DNA of 62,894 nucleotides, filler included, from an uncultured Methanosarcinales archaeon (GTDB lineage: Archaea; Nanobdellota; Nanobdellia; Woesearchaeales; GW2011-AR9), in the NCBI GenBank assembly GCA_964434885.1. It is 7 parts of 7 records of this genome, joined end to end, with 100 filler letters (N's around TTAATTAATTAA, not from the genome) between each part and the next. Parts side by side here need not be neighbours in the genome. Positions count along the whole stretch, not along the records: positions 39,754 to 49,277 come from CAYSWQ010000038.1; 6 more parts are not named here. One strand, 5' to 3'. The translations under genes and the position numbers were made by a program. Shown here one piece after another: positions 10,469 through 62,756 of this stretch. The notes beneath the pieces are model-generated. The model did not search any database. It was given only the letters and a program-made list of their open reading frames with translations, and had not been told where the DNA came from. Positions within the stretch are counted from its first letter, which is position 1. The number at the start of each line of letters is the position of its first letter.

Positions 10469-10568
10469 NNNNNNNNNNNNNNNNNNNNNNNNNNNNNNNN
10501 NNNNNNNNNNNNTTAATTAATTAANNNNNNNNNNNNNNNNNNNNNNNNNNNNNNNNNNNNNNNNNNNN
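10469..10568. other. artificial contig-join linker
   Basis: 100 nt of N with central TTAATTAATTAA (all-frame stops); identical linkers at 20338-20437, 30030-30129, 39654-39753, 49278-49377, 58813-58912. Confidence 0.97.
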
Positions 10569-20337: not shown

Positions 20338-20437
20338 NNNNNNNNNNNNNNNNNNNNNNNNNNNNNNNNNNNNNNNNNNNNTTAATTAATTAANNNNNNN
20401 NNNNNNNNNNNNNNNNNNNNNNNNNNNNNNNNNNNNN

Positions 20438-30029: not shown

Positions 30030-30338
30030 NNNNNNNNNNNNNNNNNNNNNNNNNNNNNNNNNNNNNNNNNNNNTTAATTAATTAANNNNNNNNNNNNNNN
30101 NNNNNNNNNNNNNNNNNNNNNNNNNNNNNGAAACCATGGTTTTATTTTTTTAAAGCCGTAATCAACAAATACTTTTACAATTATCATTTAGATAGTGATT
30201 TTATTGGTGAGATGGGAGGAGATGTGGCTTATTTGGGAAGGCAAATAAAATCTTTATTGAGTTTATACAAATATCAAGTTTCAGAAACACATCATCCTGG
30301 TAAAACAGAATCAAAAGAAGAAACAACATCAGAAGAAT

Positions 30339-39653: not shown

Positions 39654-39753
39654 NNNNNNNNNNNNNNNNNNNNNNNNNNNNNNNNNNNNNNNNNNNNTTA
39701 ATTAATTAANNNNNNNNNNNNNNNNNNNNNNNNNNNNNNNNNNNNNNNNNNNN

Positions 39754-42772: not shown

Positions 42773-42928
42773 GTTATTGGTTTTTAATTACAAGATAAGA
42801 AAGGGATTATTTTATCTTATTTCAAAGATTAAATTTTAACAATTTTTTTTATTCGAACATAATTATTTCTTACTTTTAACATACAAACTATCATAAAACT
42901 TATATATTTTGATTCTAAATAGTTTATT

Positions 42929-44176
42929 ATGGGGAAAGATTCTGAATGGGCACAATCAGATCAAATTGTAAATTTTTATTTTGATTTAGCCAAAAGAACT
43001 AAAAAATATTCTCGAGAACAAGAGAGAATTGCTACTACTAGATTAATAGATCAATATCGAGAATTGAGTAAATCTATTGTTGATTATGTTGTTTTTGAAA
43101 ATGAAGATTCTTTTGGAAATAATAGAAAAAAAGAAAATGATTTAGAAGTTCATTTAGGACTGAGGTATTTAGGAAAAGAATTTGAAATGAGAGGTCATTT
43201 TTATGAATTAGAAAGAAAAATTGTTAATGAAAAAGAGAAAGTAAAAAATTCTCAAAATGGAAATTCAAACAATTTAGAAAATCTAGCTGTTGAGGCATAT
43301 AATTTAATTCCTAAATCAGGTTGTAGTCGATCAAAAATAATAGGTATTTCTAGACAGTTGTTAGAGTATGGAGTTAATGCTTCAGATGATTCTGTTAATG
43401 AACAGAATATCAAAATTAAAAGAAGAATTAATACTATAGAAAGAATAGAAAATGGTTTGACTAATGCAAATATTTATTTGATAATTAGTATAGCTCGTAG
43501 ATATTCAGGAAAATCAATGCAATTATCTGATTTAATACAAGAAGGGATAATTGGTTTTATGAGGGGATTAGAGCATTATGACCCAAGTTTAGGATATCGT
43601 GTTTCAACTTATACTGGTTGGTGGATTCGTCAAAACATTGTTAGGGAATTAGTGAACCAAGATAAAACTATCAGATTACCTGTACATGTAGATACAGATT
43701 TAAATAAATTGAGAGATAGTGGGAGAATGTTAACTACAAGGTTAGAAAGAGGTCCAAATTTATTTGAACTTAGTGAAGATACAGGTTTATCAAAAGAGAT
43801 ACTTAAAAAGTTGATGGAGTTAAATGCAAGACAAGATAAATCTTTAAGTGATACTTTAGGTCAGACTGAAAACTTAACGTTGGAAGAAACAATTCCTTCT
43901 TCTATTCCTGGACAGGATCAGATAATTATGGATAAAGATATGAAAAAATATTTTGTTCGTATTTTAAAACAATTGCAACCTATTGAAGCAGGTGTTTTAG
44001 AAGAAAGATTTGGGTTAAATGGGAAAGTTCCTCAAACATTACAAGAAGTGGGTAATATGTATGGTGTTTGTAGGGAGAGAATTAGACAGATACAAGAAAG
44101 AGCTTTAAGAAAAGTTAGAATTAAAATTATTAAAGATAAAACATTTCCTTTACCTGAAGGACAATTAACTTTTTAA
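42929..44176 (+). CDS. sigma-70 family RNA polymerase sigma factor (RpoD/RpoS-like)
   Basis: Region 2 ANIYLIISIARRY, DLIQEG, YRVSTYTGWWIRQ, TIRLPVH; region 3; region 4 HTH TLQEVG.MYGVCRERIRQIQERALRK. Confidence 0.92.
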   Translation: MGKDSEWAQSDQIVNFYFDLAKRTKKYSREQERIATTRLIDQYRELSKSIVDYVVFENEDSFGNNRKKENDLEVHLGLRYLGKEFEMRGHFYELERKIVNEKEKVKNSQNGNSNNLENLAVEAYNLIPKSGCSRSKIIGISRQLLEYGVNASDDSVNEQNIKIKRRINTIERIENGLTNANIYLIISIARRYSGKSMQLSDLIQEGIIGFMRGLEHYDPSLGYRVSTYTGWWIRQNIVRELVNQDKTIRLPVHVDTDLNKLRDSGRMLTTRLERGPNLFELSEDTGLSKEILKKLMELNARQDKSLSDTLGQTENLTLEETIPSSIPGQDQIIMDKDMKKYFVRILKQLQPIEAGVLEERFGLNGKVPQTLQEVGNMYGVCRERIRQIQERALRKVRIKIIKDKTFPLPEGQLTF

Positions 44177-44201
44177 ATAACTTAGTTTTCTTAATATTAA
44201 T

Positions 44202-47200
44202 ATGAAATATTCAGTTTATAATCCGCAAGAATTAGAACCAGTAATCCAAAAGTTTTGGGAAAAAAATAAAATTAATGAAAAGACTAGAGAAAAGAATAAG
44301 AAAGGAAAAAAGTTTTATTATTTAGATGGTCCACCATATACTTCTGGAAGAATTCATTTAGGAACAGCTTGGAATAAGTCGATGAAAGATATTACTATTC
44401 GTTATCAGAAGATGAAAGGATTTAATGTTTGGGATCGGGCTGGTTTTGATATGCATGGTTTGCCAACGGCAATGAAAGTAATGGCCAAACACAACTTAAA
44501 AACTAAGGAAGATATTTTTAAATTTGGAATGGATAAATTCATCAAAGGTTGTATTGAATTTTCTCAGGAAATGATGGGAATTATGATTAAAGATTTTGAA
44601 AGATTAGGGGTTACTTTGGATTTTAAAGACCCGTATCAGCCAATAAGTAAAGAATTTATGGAAGGAGAATGGTGGTTTGTTAAAAAAGCATACGAACAAA
44701 AAAGACTTTATCATGGAGAAAAAGTAATGACTTGGTGTCAACATTGTGAAACTGCTATTGCTAAACATGAATGTGAATATGAAGAAGTAAAAGATAATTC
44801 TGTTTTTGTTAAATTACCAGTAAAAGGTAAAAAAGATGAATATTTAGTTATTTGGACTACTACACCTTGGACCTTACCTTTTAATCTAGCAGTGATGGCA
44901 AATCCAAAATTAGATTATGTTAAGGTGGAAGTGGAAGGGGGAAAAGAAAAGACAAAAGAGAAATGGATTTTGGCTAAAGCTTTAGCTGGCCCAGTTATTC
45001 AGGCAGTAGCTGATAAAAAGATGAAGATTCTTAAAGAGTTTAAAGGGAAAGAATTAGAAGGAATAGAATATGTTCACCCTTGGCAAGAAAACATTTCTAA
45101 ATTGAATGAAATTAAGAAAGAACATAAAAATACATTTACAGTAATTATGAGTGAAGAATTTGTAGATACGACTGCTGGTTCTGGATTAGTTCATTGTGCT
45201 CCTGGTTGTGGTCCAGAAGACCAACAAGCTTGTCAACCATATGATATCCCTCCATTTAATAGTTTAGGAGAAGATGGTTTTTTTCCAGAAAGTATGGGTA
45301 AATTTCATAGTTTACGTCCAAAAATAGATGATAATAAATTTATTGAAGATTTAAAAGAAAATGAATTTTTGATTGAAACTACAAAAGTAGATCACGAATA
45401 CCCTCATTGTTGGAGATGTCACGAACCGGTTATTTTTAGATTAACCCCACAATGGTTTTTGAAAATTGAAGATCTTAGAGAAGAGATGCTTAAAGATAAT
45501 GAAAAGGTAAATTGGGTTCCGGAAACTGCTAACAATGCATTTAAATCATGGGTTTCTAATCTTAAGGATAATTCAATTTCTCGACAAAGATTTTGGGGAA
45601 CTCCTTTACCAATTTGGACTTGTGATTCTTGCGAGCAAGTCGATGTTTTTGCTTCAGCTGAAGAATTAAAAAAGAAAGCAGGAAACGCTCCAGAAGATTT
45701 ACATATTCCTTGGATTGATGAAATAACTTATTCTTGTAAATGTAATGGAATGATGAAGAGAGTACCAGATATTATTGATGTTTGGGTAGATGCAGGAACA
45801 ACTTCGTGGAATTGTGTATATAATGATGCTAAATTAATTAAGGAATTGTTTCCAGTAGATTTAATTTTAGAAGCAAAAGAACAAACTAGGTTATGGTTTA
45901 GTATGTTGAGTATTTGTTCTCAAATTGCTTTGGGTAAAAATTGTTACAATAATGTTCATGTTCATGGGATGTTATTTGATATTGGCGGAAAAAAGATGAG
46001 TAAGTCTTTGGGAAATATTATTTCGCCAGATGAATTAATTGATAAGCATGGAGCAGATACTTTGAGATATTACATGGGTCAAACTAATGCTGGACAAGAA
46101 ATAAATTTTAGTTGGGATGAGTGTGCCAATAAAACAAGACATTTGCACATTATTTGGAATGTGCATAAGTTTTTAATTTCTTTAGCTAAGGAAAATAATA
46201 CTAATCCTTTTGAATTAGACAAAAAGTTAATGGGAGAGTTATTTAGTTTAGAAGAGAAGTATATTTTTTCTAAATTACATCAAACTGGACAAAAAGTTAC
46301 TCAATTATTTGATCAATTTAGATTAGATGAAACTATTGTTTTAATTGAGGAATTATTTTTGGAATTAAGTAGAACATATATTCAAATGATTAGGGATAAA
46401 AGTGTTTTGGGAAGTAAGGCAGAGAAAGATGTTTGTCTTTATACTATTTCTCAAACTTTGTTTCAAGCGATGAAATTATTTGCTCCAATTTCTCCATTTA
46501 TTACTGAGGCAATGTATCAGAATTTAAAAGAAGAATTTGATTTAAAGGAAGAAAGTATCCATCATTGTTCTTGGCCAGAATTTGACTCTAAAACTGTTGA
46601 TTTGGAATTAGAAGATGAAATGGAAATAGCTAAACAAGTAATTCAACAAGGATTAAATTTACGAGAGAAAGCACATTTAGGATTAAGGTGGCCGATTAAG
46701 GAATTAGTGGTTGCTAGTAGGGATAAAGGAACTATTAAGGCAGTGGAAAAGTTACGGGAAATTGTGGAAAAACAGGTCAATGTTAAAGGAATTAGTATTA
46801 TGGAAGAATTACCTGGAGTAGAGTTGAAAGTCAAAAGTGATTATAAAAAAATTGGTCCACGATATGAGAAATTAAGTCCCAAAATTATTGCTAAGTTAGC
46901 AATGGAGAGTCCAGAAACAATTTTAGGACATATTGAGAAAGAAGGAACATATAAATTTAAGATAGATGATACCCCAATAGAAATTAAAAAAGATGATTTG
47001 TTGATTGATAATCAAGTTCCAGAACCATATTTAGAAAGTAGTTTTCGAAAAGGATTTGTTTATATCAATACAGAAAGAAATGATATTTTGGATGGAGAAG
47101 GTTTTGCTCGAGAAATAATGAGATTAGTACAACAATTAAGGAAGGAAGCTGGTTTGGAGAAACAAGACCAGATTGAACTATTTGTTCAAGTTAGTTCTGA

Positions 47201-47357
47201 GTTACTTGAGAAAATTACTAAGTTTGAAAGTGATATTAAAGAAAAAGTTGGTGCTCAGGAAATTGAGTTAAGTAGTAAAGAACCAGCTAAAAAATTAAAG
47301 TTTTCTGCAGAAAAGAAAATTAAAAAAGAAGAAATTAAAATTTTGTTAGCTACTTAG
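44202..47357 (+). CDS. ileS: isoleucine--tRNA ligase (archaeal/eukaryotic type)
   Basis: DGPPYTSG.IHLGT, WTTTPWTLP, GSGLVH.APG, SRQRFWG, KMSKS. Confidence 0.96.
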   Translation: MKYSVYNPQELEPVIQKFWEKNKINEKTREKNKKGKKFYYLDGPPYTSGRIHLGTAWNKSMKDITIRYQKMKGFNVWDRAGFDMHGLPTAMKVMAKHNLKTKEDIFKFGMDKFIKGCIEFSQEMMGIMIKDFERLGVTLDFKDPYQPISKEFMEGEWWFVKKAYEQKRLYHGEKVMTWCQHCETAIAKHECEYEEVKDNSVFVKLPVKGKKDEYLVIWTTTPWTLPFNLAVMANPKLDYVKVEVEGGKEKTKEKWILAKALAGPVIQAVADKKMKILKEFKGKELEGIEYVHPWQENISKLNEIKKEHKNTFTVIMSEEFVDTTAGSGLVHCAPGCGPEDQQACQPYDIPPFNSLGEDGFFPESMGKFHSLRPKIDDNKFIEDLKENEFLIETTKVDHEYPHCWRCHEPVIFRLTPQWFLKIEDLREEMLKDNEKVNWVPETANNAFKSWVSNLKDNSISRQRFWGTPLPIWTCDSCEQVDVFASAEELKKKAGNAPEDLHIPWIDEITYSCKCNGMMKRVPDIIDVWVDAGTTSWNCVYNDAKLIKELFPVDLILEAKEQTRLWFSMLSICSQIALGKNCYNNVHVHGMLFDIGGKKMSKSLGNIISPDELIDKHGADTLRYYMGQTNAGQEINFSWDECANKTRHLHIIWNVHKFLISLAKENNTNPFELDKKLMGELFSLEEKYIFSKLHQTGQKVTQLFDQFRLDETIVLIEELFLELSRTYIQMIRDKSVLGSKAEKDVCLYTISQTLFQAMKLFAPISPFITEAMYQNLKEEFDLKEESIHHCSWPEFDSKTVDLELEDEMEIAKQVIQQGLNLREKAHLGLRWPIKELVVASRDKGTIKAVEKLREIVEKQVNVKGISIMEELPGVELKVKSDYKKIGPRYEKLSPKIIAKLAMESPETILGHIEKEGTYKFKIDDTPIEIKKDDLLIDNQVPEPYLESSFRKGFVYINTERNDILDGEGFAREIMRLVQQLRKEAGLEKQDQIELFVQVSSELLEKITKFESDIKEKVGAQEIELSSKEPAKKLKFSAEKKIKKEEIKILLAT

Positions 47358-49276: not shown

Positions 49277-49377
49277 ANNNNNNNNNNNNNNNNNNNNNNN
49301 NNNNNNNNNNNNNNNNNNNNNTTAATTAATTAANNNNNNNNNNNNNNNNNNNNNNNNNNNNNNNNNNNNNNNNNNNN

Positions 49378-58638: not shown

Positions 58639-59009
58639 AAAAATTAACCCATCATAGATTTTTTTATGTTGTCAAATTCTTGGTGCATTTCCATTTTACC
58701 TTTCATTTTATTCTGCCAATAAGTCATTGAAGCTTTAACTCCAGCTTGAGCAACTTTGCTTAAATGTTCATCAGCAGTTTGTAAGAAATGTTGTTTCATT
58801 TTTTCTTTTACTNNNNNNNNNNNNNNNNNNNNNNNNNNNNNNNNNNNNNNNNNNNNTTAATTAATTAANNNNNNNNNNNNNNNNNNNNNNNNNNNNNNNN
58901 NNNNNNNNNNNNTTATAAAGAAAATACCGGATTTGACATAAACATGACAGAATCTTTCTACACAAAGGAATCCAAAAATTGTGCTAGATTGATTTATGTT
59001 AAAAAAGAT

Positions 59010-59495: not shown

Positions 59496-60957
59496 ATCAA
59501 TCTTAGTAAAAAAATATTTTCAGGAACAGAAGTTTGTAGAGAGCAATATTCAGTCTTTTAACAATTTTATTGATCGAGGAATGCAAGAAGTAGTAGACGA
59601 AAATAAAGAAGTTGAACCTGCTATTATCCCACATAATATTGAAAAATTTAGAATTCGTTTTGGTAAAATTAAAGTTAATTTTCCAGAGATTACTGAAGCA
59701 GATGGAAGTAAAAGAAAAATTTATCCTGTAGAGGCTAGATTGAGAAAAATATCTTATTCTGCGTCAATTATGTTAGAAGTAAGTACTTATATTAATGATG
59801 TACAAAGAGAATCTTTTACAGCTGAAGTTGGTAAGATTCCAATTATGTTAAAAAGTAAATATTGTAATTTAAGTAATTTAGAACAATCTGAATTAGCAAA
59901 ACACGGAGAGGATCCTTATGATCCAGGTGGATATTTTATTGTTAATGGAACTGAGAAGGCAGTAATTACTGTTGAAGATTTAGCTTCCAATATTTTTGTG
60001 GTAGAGAAACAAGTAAAAGGGTTTAGAGGAAGAATTTTTTCTGCTCGTGGTTCATATAAAATCCCACATACTTTAGAAAAAGATAAAGAAGGACTTTATA
60101 CAATTTCTTTTACACGAATCAAAAATGTACCATTGGTTGTATTGATTAAAGCACTTGGTATTTTGAAAGACGAAGAAATCATGCAGGCTGTTTCTGGAGA
60201 AAAGATGTATGATGAAGTATTATTAAATTTATATGAATTTGTTGATATTAAAAATCAAGAAGAAGCATTAGATTATGTAGCAAAGAAAAGTGGAATGGTT
60301 CAGGCTAAAGAAGTTCGAATTGAAAGAACTCGAGAAACTTTGGAAAAATATTTGTTACCTCATATTGGAACTAACCAAAAGTATTGTTTGGCTAAAGCTA
60401 AAAACTTGTGTAAGATGTTGAAGAAGTTTTTAGAAACTGAAAAAGGACTAAGGGGTTTTGATGATAAAGATCATTATGCTAATAAGAGATTAAGAATGAG
60501 TGGAGATTTGTTAACGGATTTATTCAGAGTTAATTTTAAAGTTTTAGTTGGAGATATATTATATAACTTTCAAAGAATTATTAAAAGGGGGAAATTACCT
60601 AGCATTCGAGTTATTATTAGAGAGAAATTATTAACTCAAAGAATTTATTCTTCGATGGCAACTGGTCAGTGGGTTGGAGAAAGACAAGGTATTTCTCAAA
60701 GAATGGATCGAACTAATTTTTTGGCAATGATGTCTCATTTACAAAGAGTAGTTAGTCCTTTGACCACATCTCAAGAAAATTTTGAAGCTCGTGCTTTACA
60801 TTGTACCCATATTGGAAAATTATGTCCGATTGAAACTCCAGAGGGAACTAATATTGGATTAAGAAAAAATTTAGCTTTGCTTTGTAGTGTTTCTCAAAGT
60901 GCAGATGAAGAAGACATTTTGGCAAAATTAAAAGAAATTGGATTGAATGAAAAATGA
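59488..60957 (+). CDS. rpoB2: archaeal RNA polymerase subunit B'' (Rpo2N)
   Basis: GGYFIVNGTEK, DDKDHYANKRL, CPIETPEG.NIGLRKNLA. Confidence 0.95.
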   Translation: MDKSILVKKYFQEQKFVESNIQSFNNFIDRGMQEVVDENKEVEPAIIPHNIEKFRIRFGKIKVNFPEITEADGSKRKIYPVEARLRKISYSASIMLEVSTYINDVQRESFTAEVGKIPIMLKSKYCNLSNLEQSELAKHGEDPYDPGGYFIVNGTEKAVITVEDLASNIFVVEKQVKGFRGRIFSARGSYKIPHTLEKDKEGLYTISFTRIKNVPLVVLIKALGILKDEEIMQAVSGEKMYDEVLLNLYEFVDIKNQEEALDYVAKKSGMVQAKEVRIERTRETLEKYLLPHIGTNQKYCLAKAKNLCKMLKKFLETEKGLRGFDDKDHYANKRLRMSGDLLTDLFRVNFKVLVGDILYNFQRIIKRGKLPSIRVIIREKLLTQRIYSSMATGQWVGERQGISQRMDRTNFLAMMSHLQRVVSPLTTSQENFEARALHCTHIGKLCPIETPEGTNIGLRKNLALLCSVSQSADEEDILAKLKEIGLNEK

Positions 60958-62756
60958 CTGAAATTTATTTAAATAACAAATTTACTGGAACTGTGTCTGA
61001 AGGTCAGGCATTTGTAGATGATTTTAAAGATCAAAGAAGAAAAGGAGTGTATTCAGATAATACAAATATTTATTATGATAAAAAAGTAGAAGAGATTTAT
61101 ATTAATAGTTCTGAAGGAAGAGCACAAAGACCTTTGATTATTGTTAAAGAAGGAAAACCTTTATTGAATGAGAAACATATTTCTCAATTAGAAAGCGGAG
61201 ATCTTTGCTGGTCAGATTTAATTAGACAAGGAGTAATTGAAAAATTAGATGCTAGTGAAGAAGAAAATTGTTTAGTAGCACATACTGAAGAAGAATTGAC
61301 TGAAGAACACACCCATTTAGAGATAAGTTCAATGGTAATTTGTGGGTTAGCTACTTCAATGGTGCCTTTTGGAAATTTTAACCCATCATCTAGATTAATT
61401 ATTGGAAGTAAGAACCAGAAACAAGCAATTGGTTTTTATGCAGCTAATTTTACAGTAAGAATGGATATGGATAGTAGTATTTTACATTATCCACAATCTC
61501 CAATTGTAAGAACCAAAACATATGATATTTTTAATTATAATAACAATCCTGCAGGACAGAATTTAGTAGTAGCAGTAATGTGTTACGAAGGATTTAACAT
61601 GGAGGACGCAGTTATTTTGAATAAATCTTCTGTAGAAATGGGAATGGGAAGAAGTACTTACTTTAGACCGACTGAATCTGTCGAACTACGTTATGCGGGT
61701 GGTTTGACTGATGAAGTAGGAATTCCAGATAAAGAAATTAAAGGATATAGAAGTGAAAATGATTATAAATTTTTAGAAGAAGATGGAATTATCTATCCAG
61801 AAGCAAAAGTGAATGAAGGAAAGGTTATTGTTGGTAAAACAAGTCCTCCTAGATTTTTATCTAGTTTAGACGAATATAATTTGGCGGCAGCAACTAGAAG
61901 AGAAAGTTCAGTAGCTTTGAAACATGGAGAAAAAGGAATTGCAGATACTGTTTTATTAACTGAAGCCGAAGATGGAAGTAAATTAATCCAAGTAAGATTA
62001 AGAGACGAAAGAATCCCAGAAATTGGAGATAAATTTACCTCTCGACACGGACAGAAAGGAGTTGTTGGAATTTTAGCAGCACAAGAAGATTTACCTTTCT
62101 CTTGTAATGGAATCGTTCCAGATTTAATTTTTAGTCCACACGGAATTCCTTCGCGGATGACTGTATCTCATTTATTGGAGTTAGTGGGAGCTAAAGTTGG
62201 AGCTTTAGGGGGCCGAACAATTGATGGAACTGTTTTTGAAGGTGAAAAAGAAGCAGAGTTACGTAAAGAATTGTTAGAATTAGGTTTCCGTGATGATGGA
62301 ACAGAAATTTTTTATGATGGAAAAACTGGTCGAAGAATGAAAGGAAGAGTTTATGTTGGAAATATGTATTATTTGAGATTAAGACATATGGTAGCAAATA
62401 AAATGCACTCTCGAGCTAGAGGACCAGTACAATTATTAACTAGGCAGCCAACTGAAGGTAAAGCTAAAGAAGGAGGATTACGTTTGGGAGAGATGGAGAA
62501 AGATACTTTTGTTGCGCATGGAGCATCATTATTATTAAAAGAAAGATTTGATTCAGATAGTACAACAATTCCAATTTGTGAAAATTGTGGTTTGTTAGCT
62601 ACTGAGGACACATATAGAAATAGAAAACATTGTTTAATCTGTGGAGAAGACATTGAGATTAATTACATCGAAATGAGTTATGCTTTCAAATTGCTTTTGG
62701 ATGAATTCCGAAGTTTGGGAGTTTATTCAAACATCTCATTAAAAAATAAATATTAA
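60954..62756 (+). CDS. rpoB1: archaeal RNA polymerase subunit B' (Rpo2C)
   Basis: GFNMEDA, GDKFTSRHGQKG, RQPTEG..KEGGLRLGEME, C-terminal zinc finger. Confidence 0.96.
   Translation: MTEIYLNNKFTGTVSEGQAFVDDFKDQRRKGVYSDNTNIYYDKKVEEIYINSSEGRAQRPLIIVKEGKPLLNEKHISQLESGDLCWSDLIRQGVIEKLDASEEENCLVAHTEEELTEEHTHLEISSMVICGLATSMVPFGNFNPSSRLIIGSKNQKQAIGFYAANFTVRMDMDSSILHYPQSPIVRTKTYDIFNYNNNPAGQNLVVAVMCYEGFNMEDAVILNKSSVEMGMGRSTYFRPTESVELRYAGGLTDEVGIPDKEIKGYRSENDYKFLEEDGIIYPEAKVNEGKVIVGKTSPPRFLSSLDEYNLAAATRRESSVALKHGEKGIADTVLLTEAEDGSKLIQVRLRDERIPEIGDKFTSRHGQKGVVGILAAQEDLPFSCNGIVPDLIFSPHGIPSRMTVSHLLELVGAKVGALGGRTIDGTVFEGEKEAELRKELLELGFRDDGTEIFYDGKTGRRMKGRVYVGNMYYLRLRHMVANKMHSRARGPVQLLTRQPTEGKAKEGGLRLGEMEKDTFVAHGASLLLKERFDSDSTTIPICENCGLLATEDTYRNRKHCLICGEDIEINYIEMSYAFKLLLDEFRSLGVYSNISLKNKY

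Follow-up and report, generated by a model that had tools for sequence, protein, structure and literature searches.

A sigma-70 gene with intact core regions

The window analyzed here, a stretch of 62,894 nucleotides joined from contigs of a metagenome-assembled genome (MAG; GCA_964434885.1), carries a gene for a sigma-70 family protein of 415 amino acids. The gene lies between one encoding a DUF7343 protein and ileS, which encodes isoleucyl-tRNA synthetase (IleRS), and both the sigma gene and ileS are preceded by a TATA box (Table 1). It is a genuine and intact member of the sigma-70 family, RpoD/RpoS-like and containing regions 2, 3, and 4, and it is native to a small Woesearchaeota-like DPANN genome. 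A first-pass annotation had likewise placed a sigma-70 protein of this length in an archaeal genome, and the Pfam matches, the sigma fold, and the archaeal TATA box described below bear this out.

Table 1. Features of the sigma gene, its neighbors, and the window joints (positions count along the whole window)
Feature	Position	Strand	Basis
Upstream neighbor: N-terminal CarboxypepD_reg-like domain (under Pfam cut-off) and C-terminal DUF7343/MarR-like winged helix	41885..42772	+	Pfam
TATA box CTTATATA of the sigma gene, starting at -30 from the ATG	42899..42906	+	Sequence, genome-wide peak
RpoD/RpoS-like (group 1/2-like) gene of the sigma-70 family; 415 aa, region 1.1 absent	42929..44176	+	Pfam, NCBIfam, RpoS alignment, AF2, Foldseek
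Helix resembling region 1.2 (DQIVNFYF...SREQE, residues 11-31); a spacer of ~120 aa with little conservation comes after it	42959..43021	+	Alignment with relatives, AF2
Region 2 (residues 181-246), with the core-binding block DLIQEGIIGF and the block for -10 recognition/melting, STYTGWWIRQ	43469..43666	+	PF04542, RpoS alignment
Region 3, residues 258-329	43700..43915	+	PF04539
Region 4 helix-turn-helix with RERIRQIQERALRKVR, residues 346-397	43964..44119	+	PF04545, RpoS alignment
TATA box of the ileS gene, TTTAAATA; box start at -30 relative to the ATG, sharing bases with the stop codon of the sigma gene	44172..44179	+	Sequence, genome-wide peak
IleRS, downstream neighbor	44202..47357	+	TIGR00392, 774 bits (cut-off 621)
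Artificial joints (44 N + TTAATTAATTAA + 44 N)	10469-10568, 20338-20437, 30030-30129, 39654-39753 (left end of sigma contig), 49278-49377 (right end of sigma contig), 58813-58912	.	Sequence

The Pfam match to Sigma70_r2 (PF04542) was strong (E of 5.9e-16; 58.5 bits against a cut-off of 24), as was that to Sigma70_r4 (PF04545; E of 7e-13; 48.3 bits against 24.1), and Sigma70_r3 (PF04539) was borderline, with an E value of 1.7e-5 and a score equal to its cut-off of 25.3 bits. The stop-to-stop frame spans just 417 codons, compared with 415 for the open reading frame (ORF), and the ATG at 42929 is therefore the only possible start. The best sequence relatives of solved structure were Escherichia coli RpoS and mycobacterial SigA (E of ~7e-43, residues 175 to 397). 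In the alignment to these proteins the DLIQEG block, STY..WWIRQ, and RERIRQIQ are all kept, and the motif YRVSTYTGWWIRQ aligns with the region 2.3/2.4 block of the solved RpoS. The only NCBIfam cut-off exceeded was that of the sigma-70 superfamily, TIGR02937 (87.1 against 42.9 bits). The highest-scoring NCBIfam models were those for RpoD/SigA, MzaA, and RpoS, all far under their cut-offs, and the RpoH, SigB/F/G, and FliA models scored much lower. No equivalog or subfamily cut-off for RpoD, RpoS, or SigA was reached: the best, TIGR02997, gave 214 against 384.5 bits, the RpoS model 188.6 against 378.7, and RpoD_Cterm 188 against 354.

The first-pass annotation had called the protein complete, which holds for regions 2, 3, and 4 but not for the N terminus. 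Region 1.1 (PF03979) was not found by Pfam, and the segment that had been read as region 1.2-like gave no Pfam match to PF00140 at an E value of 10 or below when residues 1 to 170 were searched. The segment, which is predicted to be helical, does align with the N termini of relatives in which PF00140 is present. An AlphaFold2 (AF2) model, built on 16 DPANN sequences, had a mean predicted local distance difference test (pLDDT) score of 77.2. Regions 2, 3, and 4 were confident (within regions 2 and 4, the majority of 10-residue blocks averaged 84 to 96), and the model was weak at residues 59 to 140 and 301 to 330. Helices were predicted at residues 3 to 23 and 29 to 58; the block means were 86 to 93 for residues 11 to 50, and 55 and 61 in the first and last blocks. 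When the model was compared with the PDB using Foldseek, the best 50 matches were bacterial sigma chains throughout (best E of 1.2e-15). The consensus of the 16 DPANN sigmas reads DLIQEGNIGLM..KFSTYA.WWIRQ..IR.PVH and VTRERIRQIE.KAL.KLR.

An archaeal genome and an archaeal promoter

The MAG is 92% complete with 0% contamination. The genome encodes TBP, TFB, TFE, and RpoA1 along with a split rpoB of archaeal type, and no rpoB match in it reached the bacterial rpoB cut-off. Split rpoB genes are common in archaea; here the two ORFs (489-aa and 601-aa frames) lie at 59929-62552 of the window, on contig C59, and both are under the bacterial cut-off. The RpoA1 (A') gene is broken over contig ends (62785-62892 of the window, on C59, and G000:C24:11867-13633), and residues ~38 to 258 of RpoA', including the first helix and the tip of the clamp coiled-coil, are unassembled. 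The genome also holds a second sigma gene, encoding an extracytoplasmic function (ECF)-type protein of 158 amino acids on the minus strand of contig G000:C19 (L002:1240-1716), which scored 85.8 bits with TIGR02937 (cut-off of 42.9).

The TATA box of the sigma gene had been placed about 23 nucleotides before the ATG; the measured gap is 22 nucleotides. Across the whole genome, the pattern [CT]TTA[TA]A[TA]A started at -32 to -29 in 150 of 853 ORFs, compared with ~0 to 7 per position elsewhere. The CTTATATA box is not a chance AT-rich octamer because its position falls on this genome-wide peak, the genome's own leaderless-promoter distance. This spacing implies a transcript that is probably leaderless or nearly so. 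Similar TATA-like boxes occur at -34 to -28 in 13 of 28 sigma genes of relatives. A second class of starts was seen in the same 853 ORFs, in which Shine-Dalgarno words peaked at -14 to -9 (242 word matches, with a maximum of 64 at a single position).

The window holds contigs C34 to C39 and C59 of a 66-contig, size-ordered MAG of ~1.07 Mb, with the last contig cut at the window end. At the six joints, TTAATTAATTAA is a linker with stops in all frames, and gene neighborhoods are not readable across them. The DUF7343 gene, the sigma gene, and ileS lie together on C38 (39754-49277 of the window; 9,524 bp), in agreement with the earlier description of a sigma gene between a COG2512-like archaeal gene and an archaeal IleRS on a single contig. 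The DUF7343 protein putatively spans the membrane, as judged by eye from its sequence. Among the matches of the IleRS in the named collection, 29 of the 36 confirmed loci were archaeal (42 to 64% identity) and 7 were bacterial (31% identity or less). Of the archaeal loci, 22 are titled Candidatus Woesearchaeota, Nanoarchaeota, Nanoarchaeia, Nanobdellati, or "archaeon." The other 7 (L089, L090, L094, L095, L103, L105, and L107) come from third-party annotation (TPA) MAGs titled "uncultured Methanosarcinales archaeon"; their IleRS proteins are 51 to 64% identical, some have a sigma gene upstream, and the titles look mislabeled. The description of the genome as Woesearchaeota-like is based on the titles of these IleRS relatives.

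Distribution in relatives and position next to ileS

Sigma genes are widespread among the relatives of this archaeon. The sigma protein matched sequences in 35 of 60 related genomes: 23 of the 36 from its own family and 12 of the 24 from elsewhere in the order. Within the order, Sigma70_r2 genes were present in 62 of 151 genomes when the source genome is counted, or in 59 of 148 when the unpublished G147, G156, and G167 are set aside. In a phylum-wide sample of 201 genomes, 78 had such a gene, some of them in other orders of the class. Genomes carry several sigma paralogues, with up to 7 matches in one genome.

To survey the position next to ileS, sigma coordinates were crossed with IleRS coordinates and the ORFs upstream of ileS were annotated in 37 genomes of the family (Table 2). 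In 12 of the 37, the gene immediately preceding ileS, in the same orientation, is a sigma gene. Several of these syntenic copies are on long contigs, of 256 kb (G010:C4), 94.6 kb (G021:C41), and 45 kb (G022:C20 and G032:C28).

Table 2. State of the position upstream of ileS in the genomes surveyed
Arrangement	Genomes
Sigma gene in the slot	G000, G010 (two in tandem), G013 (cut by contig end), G014 (266 aa), G016, G019, G021, G022 (two in tandem), G028, G032, G033, G036 (264-aa fragment)
DUF7343 gene upstream of the slot sigma gene (7 of 11 slot-sharing relatives)	G010, G016, G021, G022, G028, G033, G036
Sigma gene next to ileS but arranged differently, or at a distance of 3.3 kb	G026, G015, G004
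Sigma-ileS order shared by another family, gene split	G059 (288+87 aa)
Slot without a sigma gene (13)	G002, G003, G005, G009, G011, G012, G017, G018, G023, G024, G025, G027, G031
DUF7343 gene directly abutting ileS (5 of these 13)	G002, G003, G012, G018, G023
Slot unreadable (contig ends or fragmented ileS)	G001, G006, G007, G008, G020, G029, G030, G034, G035

Two further ideas about this position were tried and set aside. Divergent sigmas might be hidden in the empty slots, and a DPANN-sigma profile was run against slot ORFs of G011, G024, G025, G009, G005, G031, and G032 (a short ORF being included for each of the last four); it found none in the unannotated ORFs, the E values being 0.004 or worse. 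The DUF7343 protein as an anti-sigma-like partner is likewise unsupported. Within the order, DUF7343 occurs in 145 of 151 genomes (143 of 148 once the unpublished genomes are excluded), is multicopy, and adjoins ileS even where no sigma gene is present. No sigma-DUF7343 adjacency outside the family was seen among the 150 of 422 matches that were listed. The two genes share a common syntenic position only.

Divergence and phylogeny

The sigma protein has diverged far more than its neighbor, showing 22 to 39% identity to family relatives, compared with 47 to 72% for IleRS (49 to 72% for the 11 slot-sharing relatives alone). Its best bacterial matches were 38 to 43% identical over 53 to 62% of the query, and in the protein collection searched no relative, bacterial or other, exceeded 43% identity. 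An identical sigma protein is recorded on three contigs, the longest being 38,993 bp. The first-pass annotation had named close nesting within a co-occurring bacterium as a sign of foreign origin, and this was not seen. Since the bacterial relatives are at most 43% identical, the sequence comparison gives no indication of a recent transfer from a co-occurring bacterium.

A phylogeny, also proposed in the first-pass annotation, was built from 54 domains (30 DPANN and 24 bacterial) over 236 columns, with bacterial rows that are the best query matches only and no balanced reference set of RpoD, RpoS, RpoH, and ECF sigmas. The tree left the backbone unresolved, recovering neither a bacterial donor nor a single archaeal clade. 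The sigma protein paired with a cyanobacterial sequence with a support of 91/86, which is under the star threshold. End branches of the DPANN rows were 0.6 to 5.3 changes per column, compared with ~0 to 0.8 for the bacterial rows.

Relation to known sigma factors

Sigma factors are regarded as a defining bacterial invention, and passages in two recent papers (PMC12316311 and PMC12993045) still state that archaea are without them. Sigmas whose core-binding and DNA-melting motifs are intact, in about four of every ten genomes sampled from one archaeal phylum, are an unexplained exception. Such genes were reportedly first noted in DPANN single-cell genomes by Rinke et al. in 2013. The first-pass annotation mentioned sigma-like genes in a few DPANN single-cell genomes, which was right as to their presence and understated as to their number, given the counts above and the word "prevalent" used by Castelle et al. 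in 2021. In their treatment of these genes, Castelle et al. (PMC8204110) describe sigma-70 genes (fam00359) as prevalent in Woesearchaeota, rule out mis-binning through the phylogeny of co-encoded proteins, and state that anti-sigma factors were not found and that the mechanism is unclear. The gene studied here resembles those in that account in standing beside archaeal genes in a genome with TBP, TFB, and TFE and in being without an anti-sigma factor or a known role, and the prevalence counts agree. The literature search found no functional study of DPANN sigmas, the 2021 paper being the only one it found on the topic. We therefore do not present a discovery of the phenomenon, since it is already in print; the sigma gene here is a new and very divergent case of a known, unexplained kind of gene. 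Relative to the passage of Castelle et al. concerned with these genes, the DUF7343-sigma-ileS position, the TATA box at -30, the contrast in rate with IleRS, and the absence of an excess of sigma-70-type promoters (see below) are additional, and they may be covered in other sections or supplements of that paper. The gene offers a clean, testable case, with a short protein, its own archaeal promoter, a fixed position in the family, and a fully archaeal background.

Two bacterial systems provide the closest comparisons. The protein resembles group 1/2 sigmas (RpoD/SigA and RpoS) in having regions 2, 3, and 4 in the same order with the signature motifs of 2.2, 2.3/2.4, and 4.2, and primary sigmas in having a helical N-terminal segment and a spacer before region 2; the predicted fold matches that of E. 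coli sigma-70 in holoenzymes. It differs from group 1/2 sigmas in falling under every equivalog cut-off, in being without region 1.1 and a significant region 1.2, and in being encoded without a bacterial core enzyme and driven by an archaeal TATA promoter. The second comparison is with MzaA, the sigma of the MZA anti-phage system, to which it is similar in the C-terminal sigma part (NF041931, E of 4e-61; PDLC02203, E of 3.3e-38). In contrast, the N-terminal part of MzaA, ~440 residues, is unmatched, and the score was 207.8 bits against a cut-off of 800.

Biological role

We tentatively propose, with somewhat less than even confidence, that the protein is an accessory sigma-like transcription regulator acting inside the archaeon, and that it belongs to a widespread, fast-evolving family of the class that is often duplicated or lost. 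In this proposal, region 4 and regions 2.3/2.4 would bind DNA, and the surface of region 2.2 would dock on the clamp coiled-coil of RNA polymerase, a structure that is homologous between bacterial beta-prime and archaeal Rpo1/A'. The protein would act beside TBP, TFB, and TFE and would not replace them. The conserved region 2.2 block suggests such a polymerase contact, and the core-binding, -10-melting, and -35 motifs have all been kept despite fast evolution. An endogenous regulator is favored over an effector directed at a host because the family is widespread and rich in paralogues, an ECF-type member is present in the same genome, and the sigmas of relatives show varied N-terminal extensions and fusions. 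If sigmas of this kind do act on the archaeal polymerase, the view of the split between the two initiation systems would change.

Several observations weigh against this proposal. Among the 25 family genomes with a readable slot (an uncut contig and no sigma gene elsewhere beside ileS), 13 are free of sigma there, and the protein query found no match in 13 of the 36 family relatives; the gene is dispensable and often lost. Its extreme divergence would also be expected under relaxed constraint or in an arms race. The 13 ileS-linked sigma rows in the tree did not form one clade, forced monophyly costing 56 log-likelihood units (approximately unbiased test, P = 0.036), and orthology across the slot is therefore not established. 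This non-monophyly could reflect long-branch effects, differential loss among ancient tandem paralogues, or replacement of the sigma gene at this position. At the EGNIGL position, the protein carries Ile in place of the Asn of the DPANN consensus. Its -10-melting aromatics and core-binding block, both retained, would be explained most simply by a bacterial-type core, which the genome lacks. Furthermore, sigma-70-type promoters (TTGACA-N16-18-TATAAT) were not enriched upstream of 844 ORFs, with 41 regions observed compared with 59.6 +/- 6.8 in shuffled sequence and 59 on the antisense strand. Finally, TFE, which uses the same clamp surface as the proposed sigma contact, is present in 57 of 61 relatives independently of sigma, and the idea that sigma replaces TFE at the clamp was ruled out on these counts. 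A complex prediction with sigma region 2 (residues 150 to 250) and residues 1 to 345 of the RpoA' of G028, used as a stand-in for the partly unassembled RpoA' of this genome, gave no answer in either direction (scores of 0.00 and 0.00, without controls).

A more specific form of an internal role is hybrid initiation in DPANN archaea of this class, in which sigma-like proteins (here the RpoD-like and the ECF-like one) would dock on the archaeal clamp coiled-coil and steer promoter choice together with TBP, TFB, and TFE. We regard this as doubtful; if true, it would be the first case in which a polymerase of archaeal or eukaryotic type selects promoters through sigma-like proteins. A lesser possibility is that the position beside ileS holds an ancient tandem pair of such genes, now undergoing differential loss.

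The protein might instead enter a bacterial partner or prey and redirect its core RNA polymerase, as phage-encoded sigmas do, which would amount to a new mode of symbiont-host control. In favor of this, the kept region 2.2 block, STY..WWIRQ, and the RERIRQI -35 helix might be said to make sense only with a bacterial core and bacterial promoters, neither a bacterial core nor an excess of sigma-70-type promoters occurs in the genome, and very fast evolution suits an interaction protein. However, several paralogues, an ECF-type sigma, and cytoplasmic-type fusions (SNF2 helicase and HTH) resemble an internal regulatory family, and no signal peptide or secretion-linked neighbor was seen by reading the N terminus only, with no formal test. 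No cultured DPANN archaeon is known to have a bacterial host, which we count against an effector. Overall, we consider such a role unlikely.

We give a similarly low probability to the idea that a horizontally acquired sigma is drifting under weak or no selection, still transcribed and without a specific role. Patchy presence, frequent loss, the split or shortened copies in G036, G059, and G014, and the very long DPANN branches are what such a leftover would leave behind. Against it stand the intact 415-aa frame with its well-placed promoter and the breadth of the gene family, which extends through many families of the order and into further orders of the class, and the diagnostic motifs, which drift would erase, are kept in 16 highly diverged DPANN copies.

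A component of an MZA-like anti-virus system or of an integrated element is improbable. MzaA was the second-best NCBIfam match and the sole PADLOC match, and a sigma fusion in one relative lies near a serine recombinase. However, the match to MzaA covers only its generic sigma part (model positions 444 to 703 of 726) at a score far under the cut-off, the DUF7343 protein, the sole neighbor scanned, had no defense gene match, and the sigma gene stands between housekeeping genes in a position conserved in the family.

Very improbable is an assembly or binning artifact that placed a bacterial gene in archaeal DNA: the contig measures just 9.5 kb, the MAG is in 66 contigs, and the sigma of one relative (G050) does look bacterial, but the sigma-ileS synteny shared by 12 of the 37 genomes of the family (with contigs of 45 to 256 kb among them), the fit of both TATA boxes at -30 with that of ileS lying over the sigma stop codon, and ordinary composition make a chimera unlikely, as do the bacterial identities of 43% or less and the three recorded contigs with the identical protein. 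The composition was assessed by tetranucleotides, for which the sigma gene fell at the 37th percentile among 826 genome windows of the same size. With the synteny and the promoter, the checks for chimerism raised by the first-pass annotation mostly came out in favor of a native gene. Sampled words of a 3.5-kb stretch were also found in six runs of two studies, as unaligned reads and with one possibly being the source sample; the exact 60-base sigma-ileS junction had 0 matches in metagenome contigs.

Other sigma genes in relatives

Some sigma genes of relatives differ strongly in architecture or position. One is a giant fusion of 1,502 amino acids (G020:C39, L038:6699-11204) with two region 2 stretches, a region 1.2, and an HTH_17 domain. 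Another giant fusion, of 1,032 amino acids (G036:C33, L046:563-3658), joins a Helicase_C domain and sigma regions 2 and 4 in one chain. Just upstream of it is a separate ORF of 125 amino acids, cut by the contig start, with an SNF2-related domain, and the serine recombinase lies ~3 kb downstream of the fusion. The bacterial-looking sigma of G050 (G050:C67, L030:4696-6057), on a contig of 6.6 kb in a genome with 6% contamination, carries both region 1.1 and region 1.2, and in the tree it clusters with RpoD of bacteria; this contig may be bacterial contamination. In two other relatives a sigma gene is associated with ribosomal protein genes, lying directly upstream of the S13-S4-S11 cluster in one (G003:C30, L039:6216-9500) and directly upstream of S13 in the other (G015:C5, L068:436-3322). 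The ribosomal S13 site would be a second recurring sigma position besides the ileS slot.

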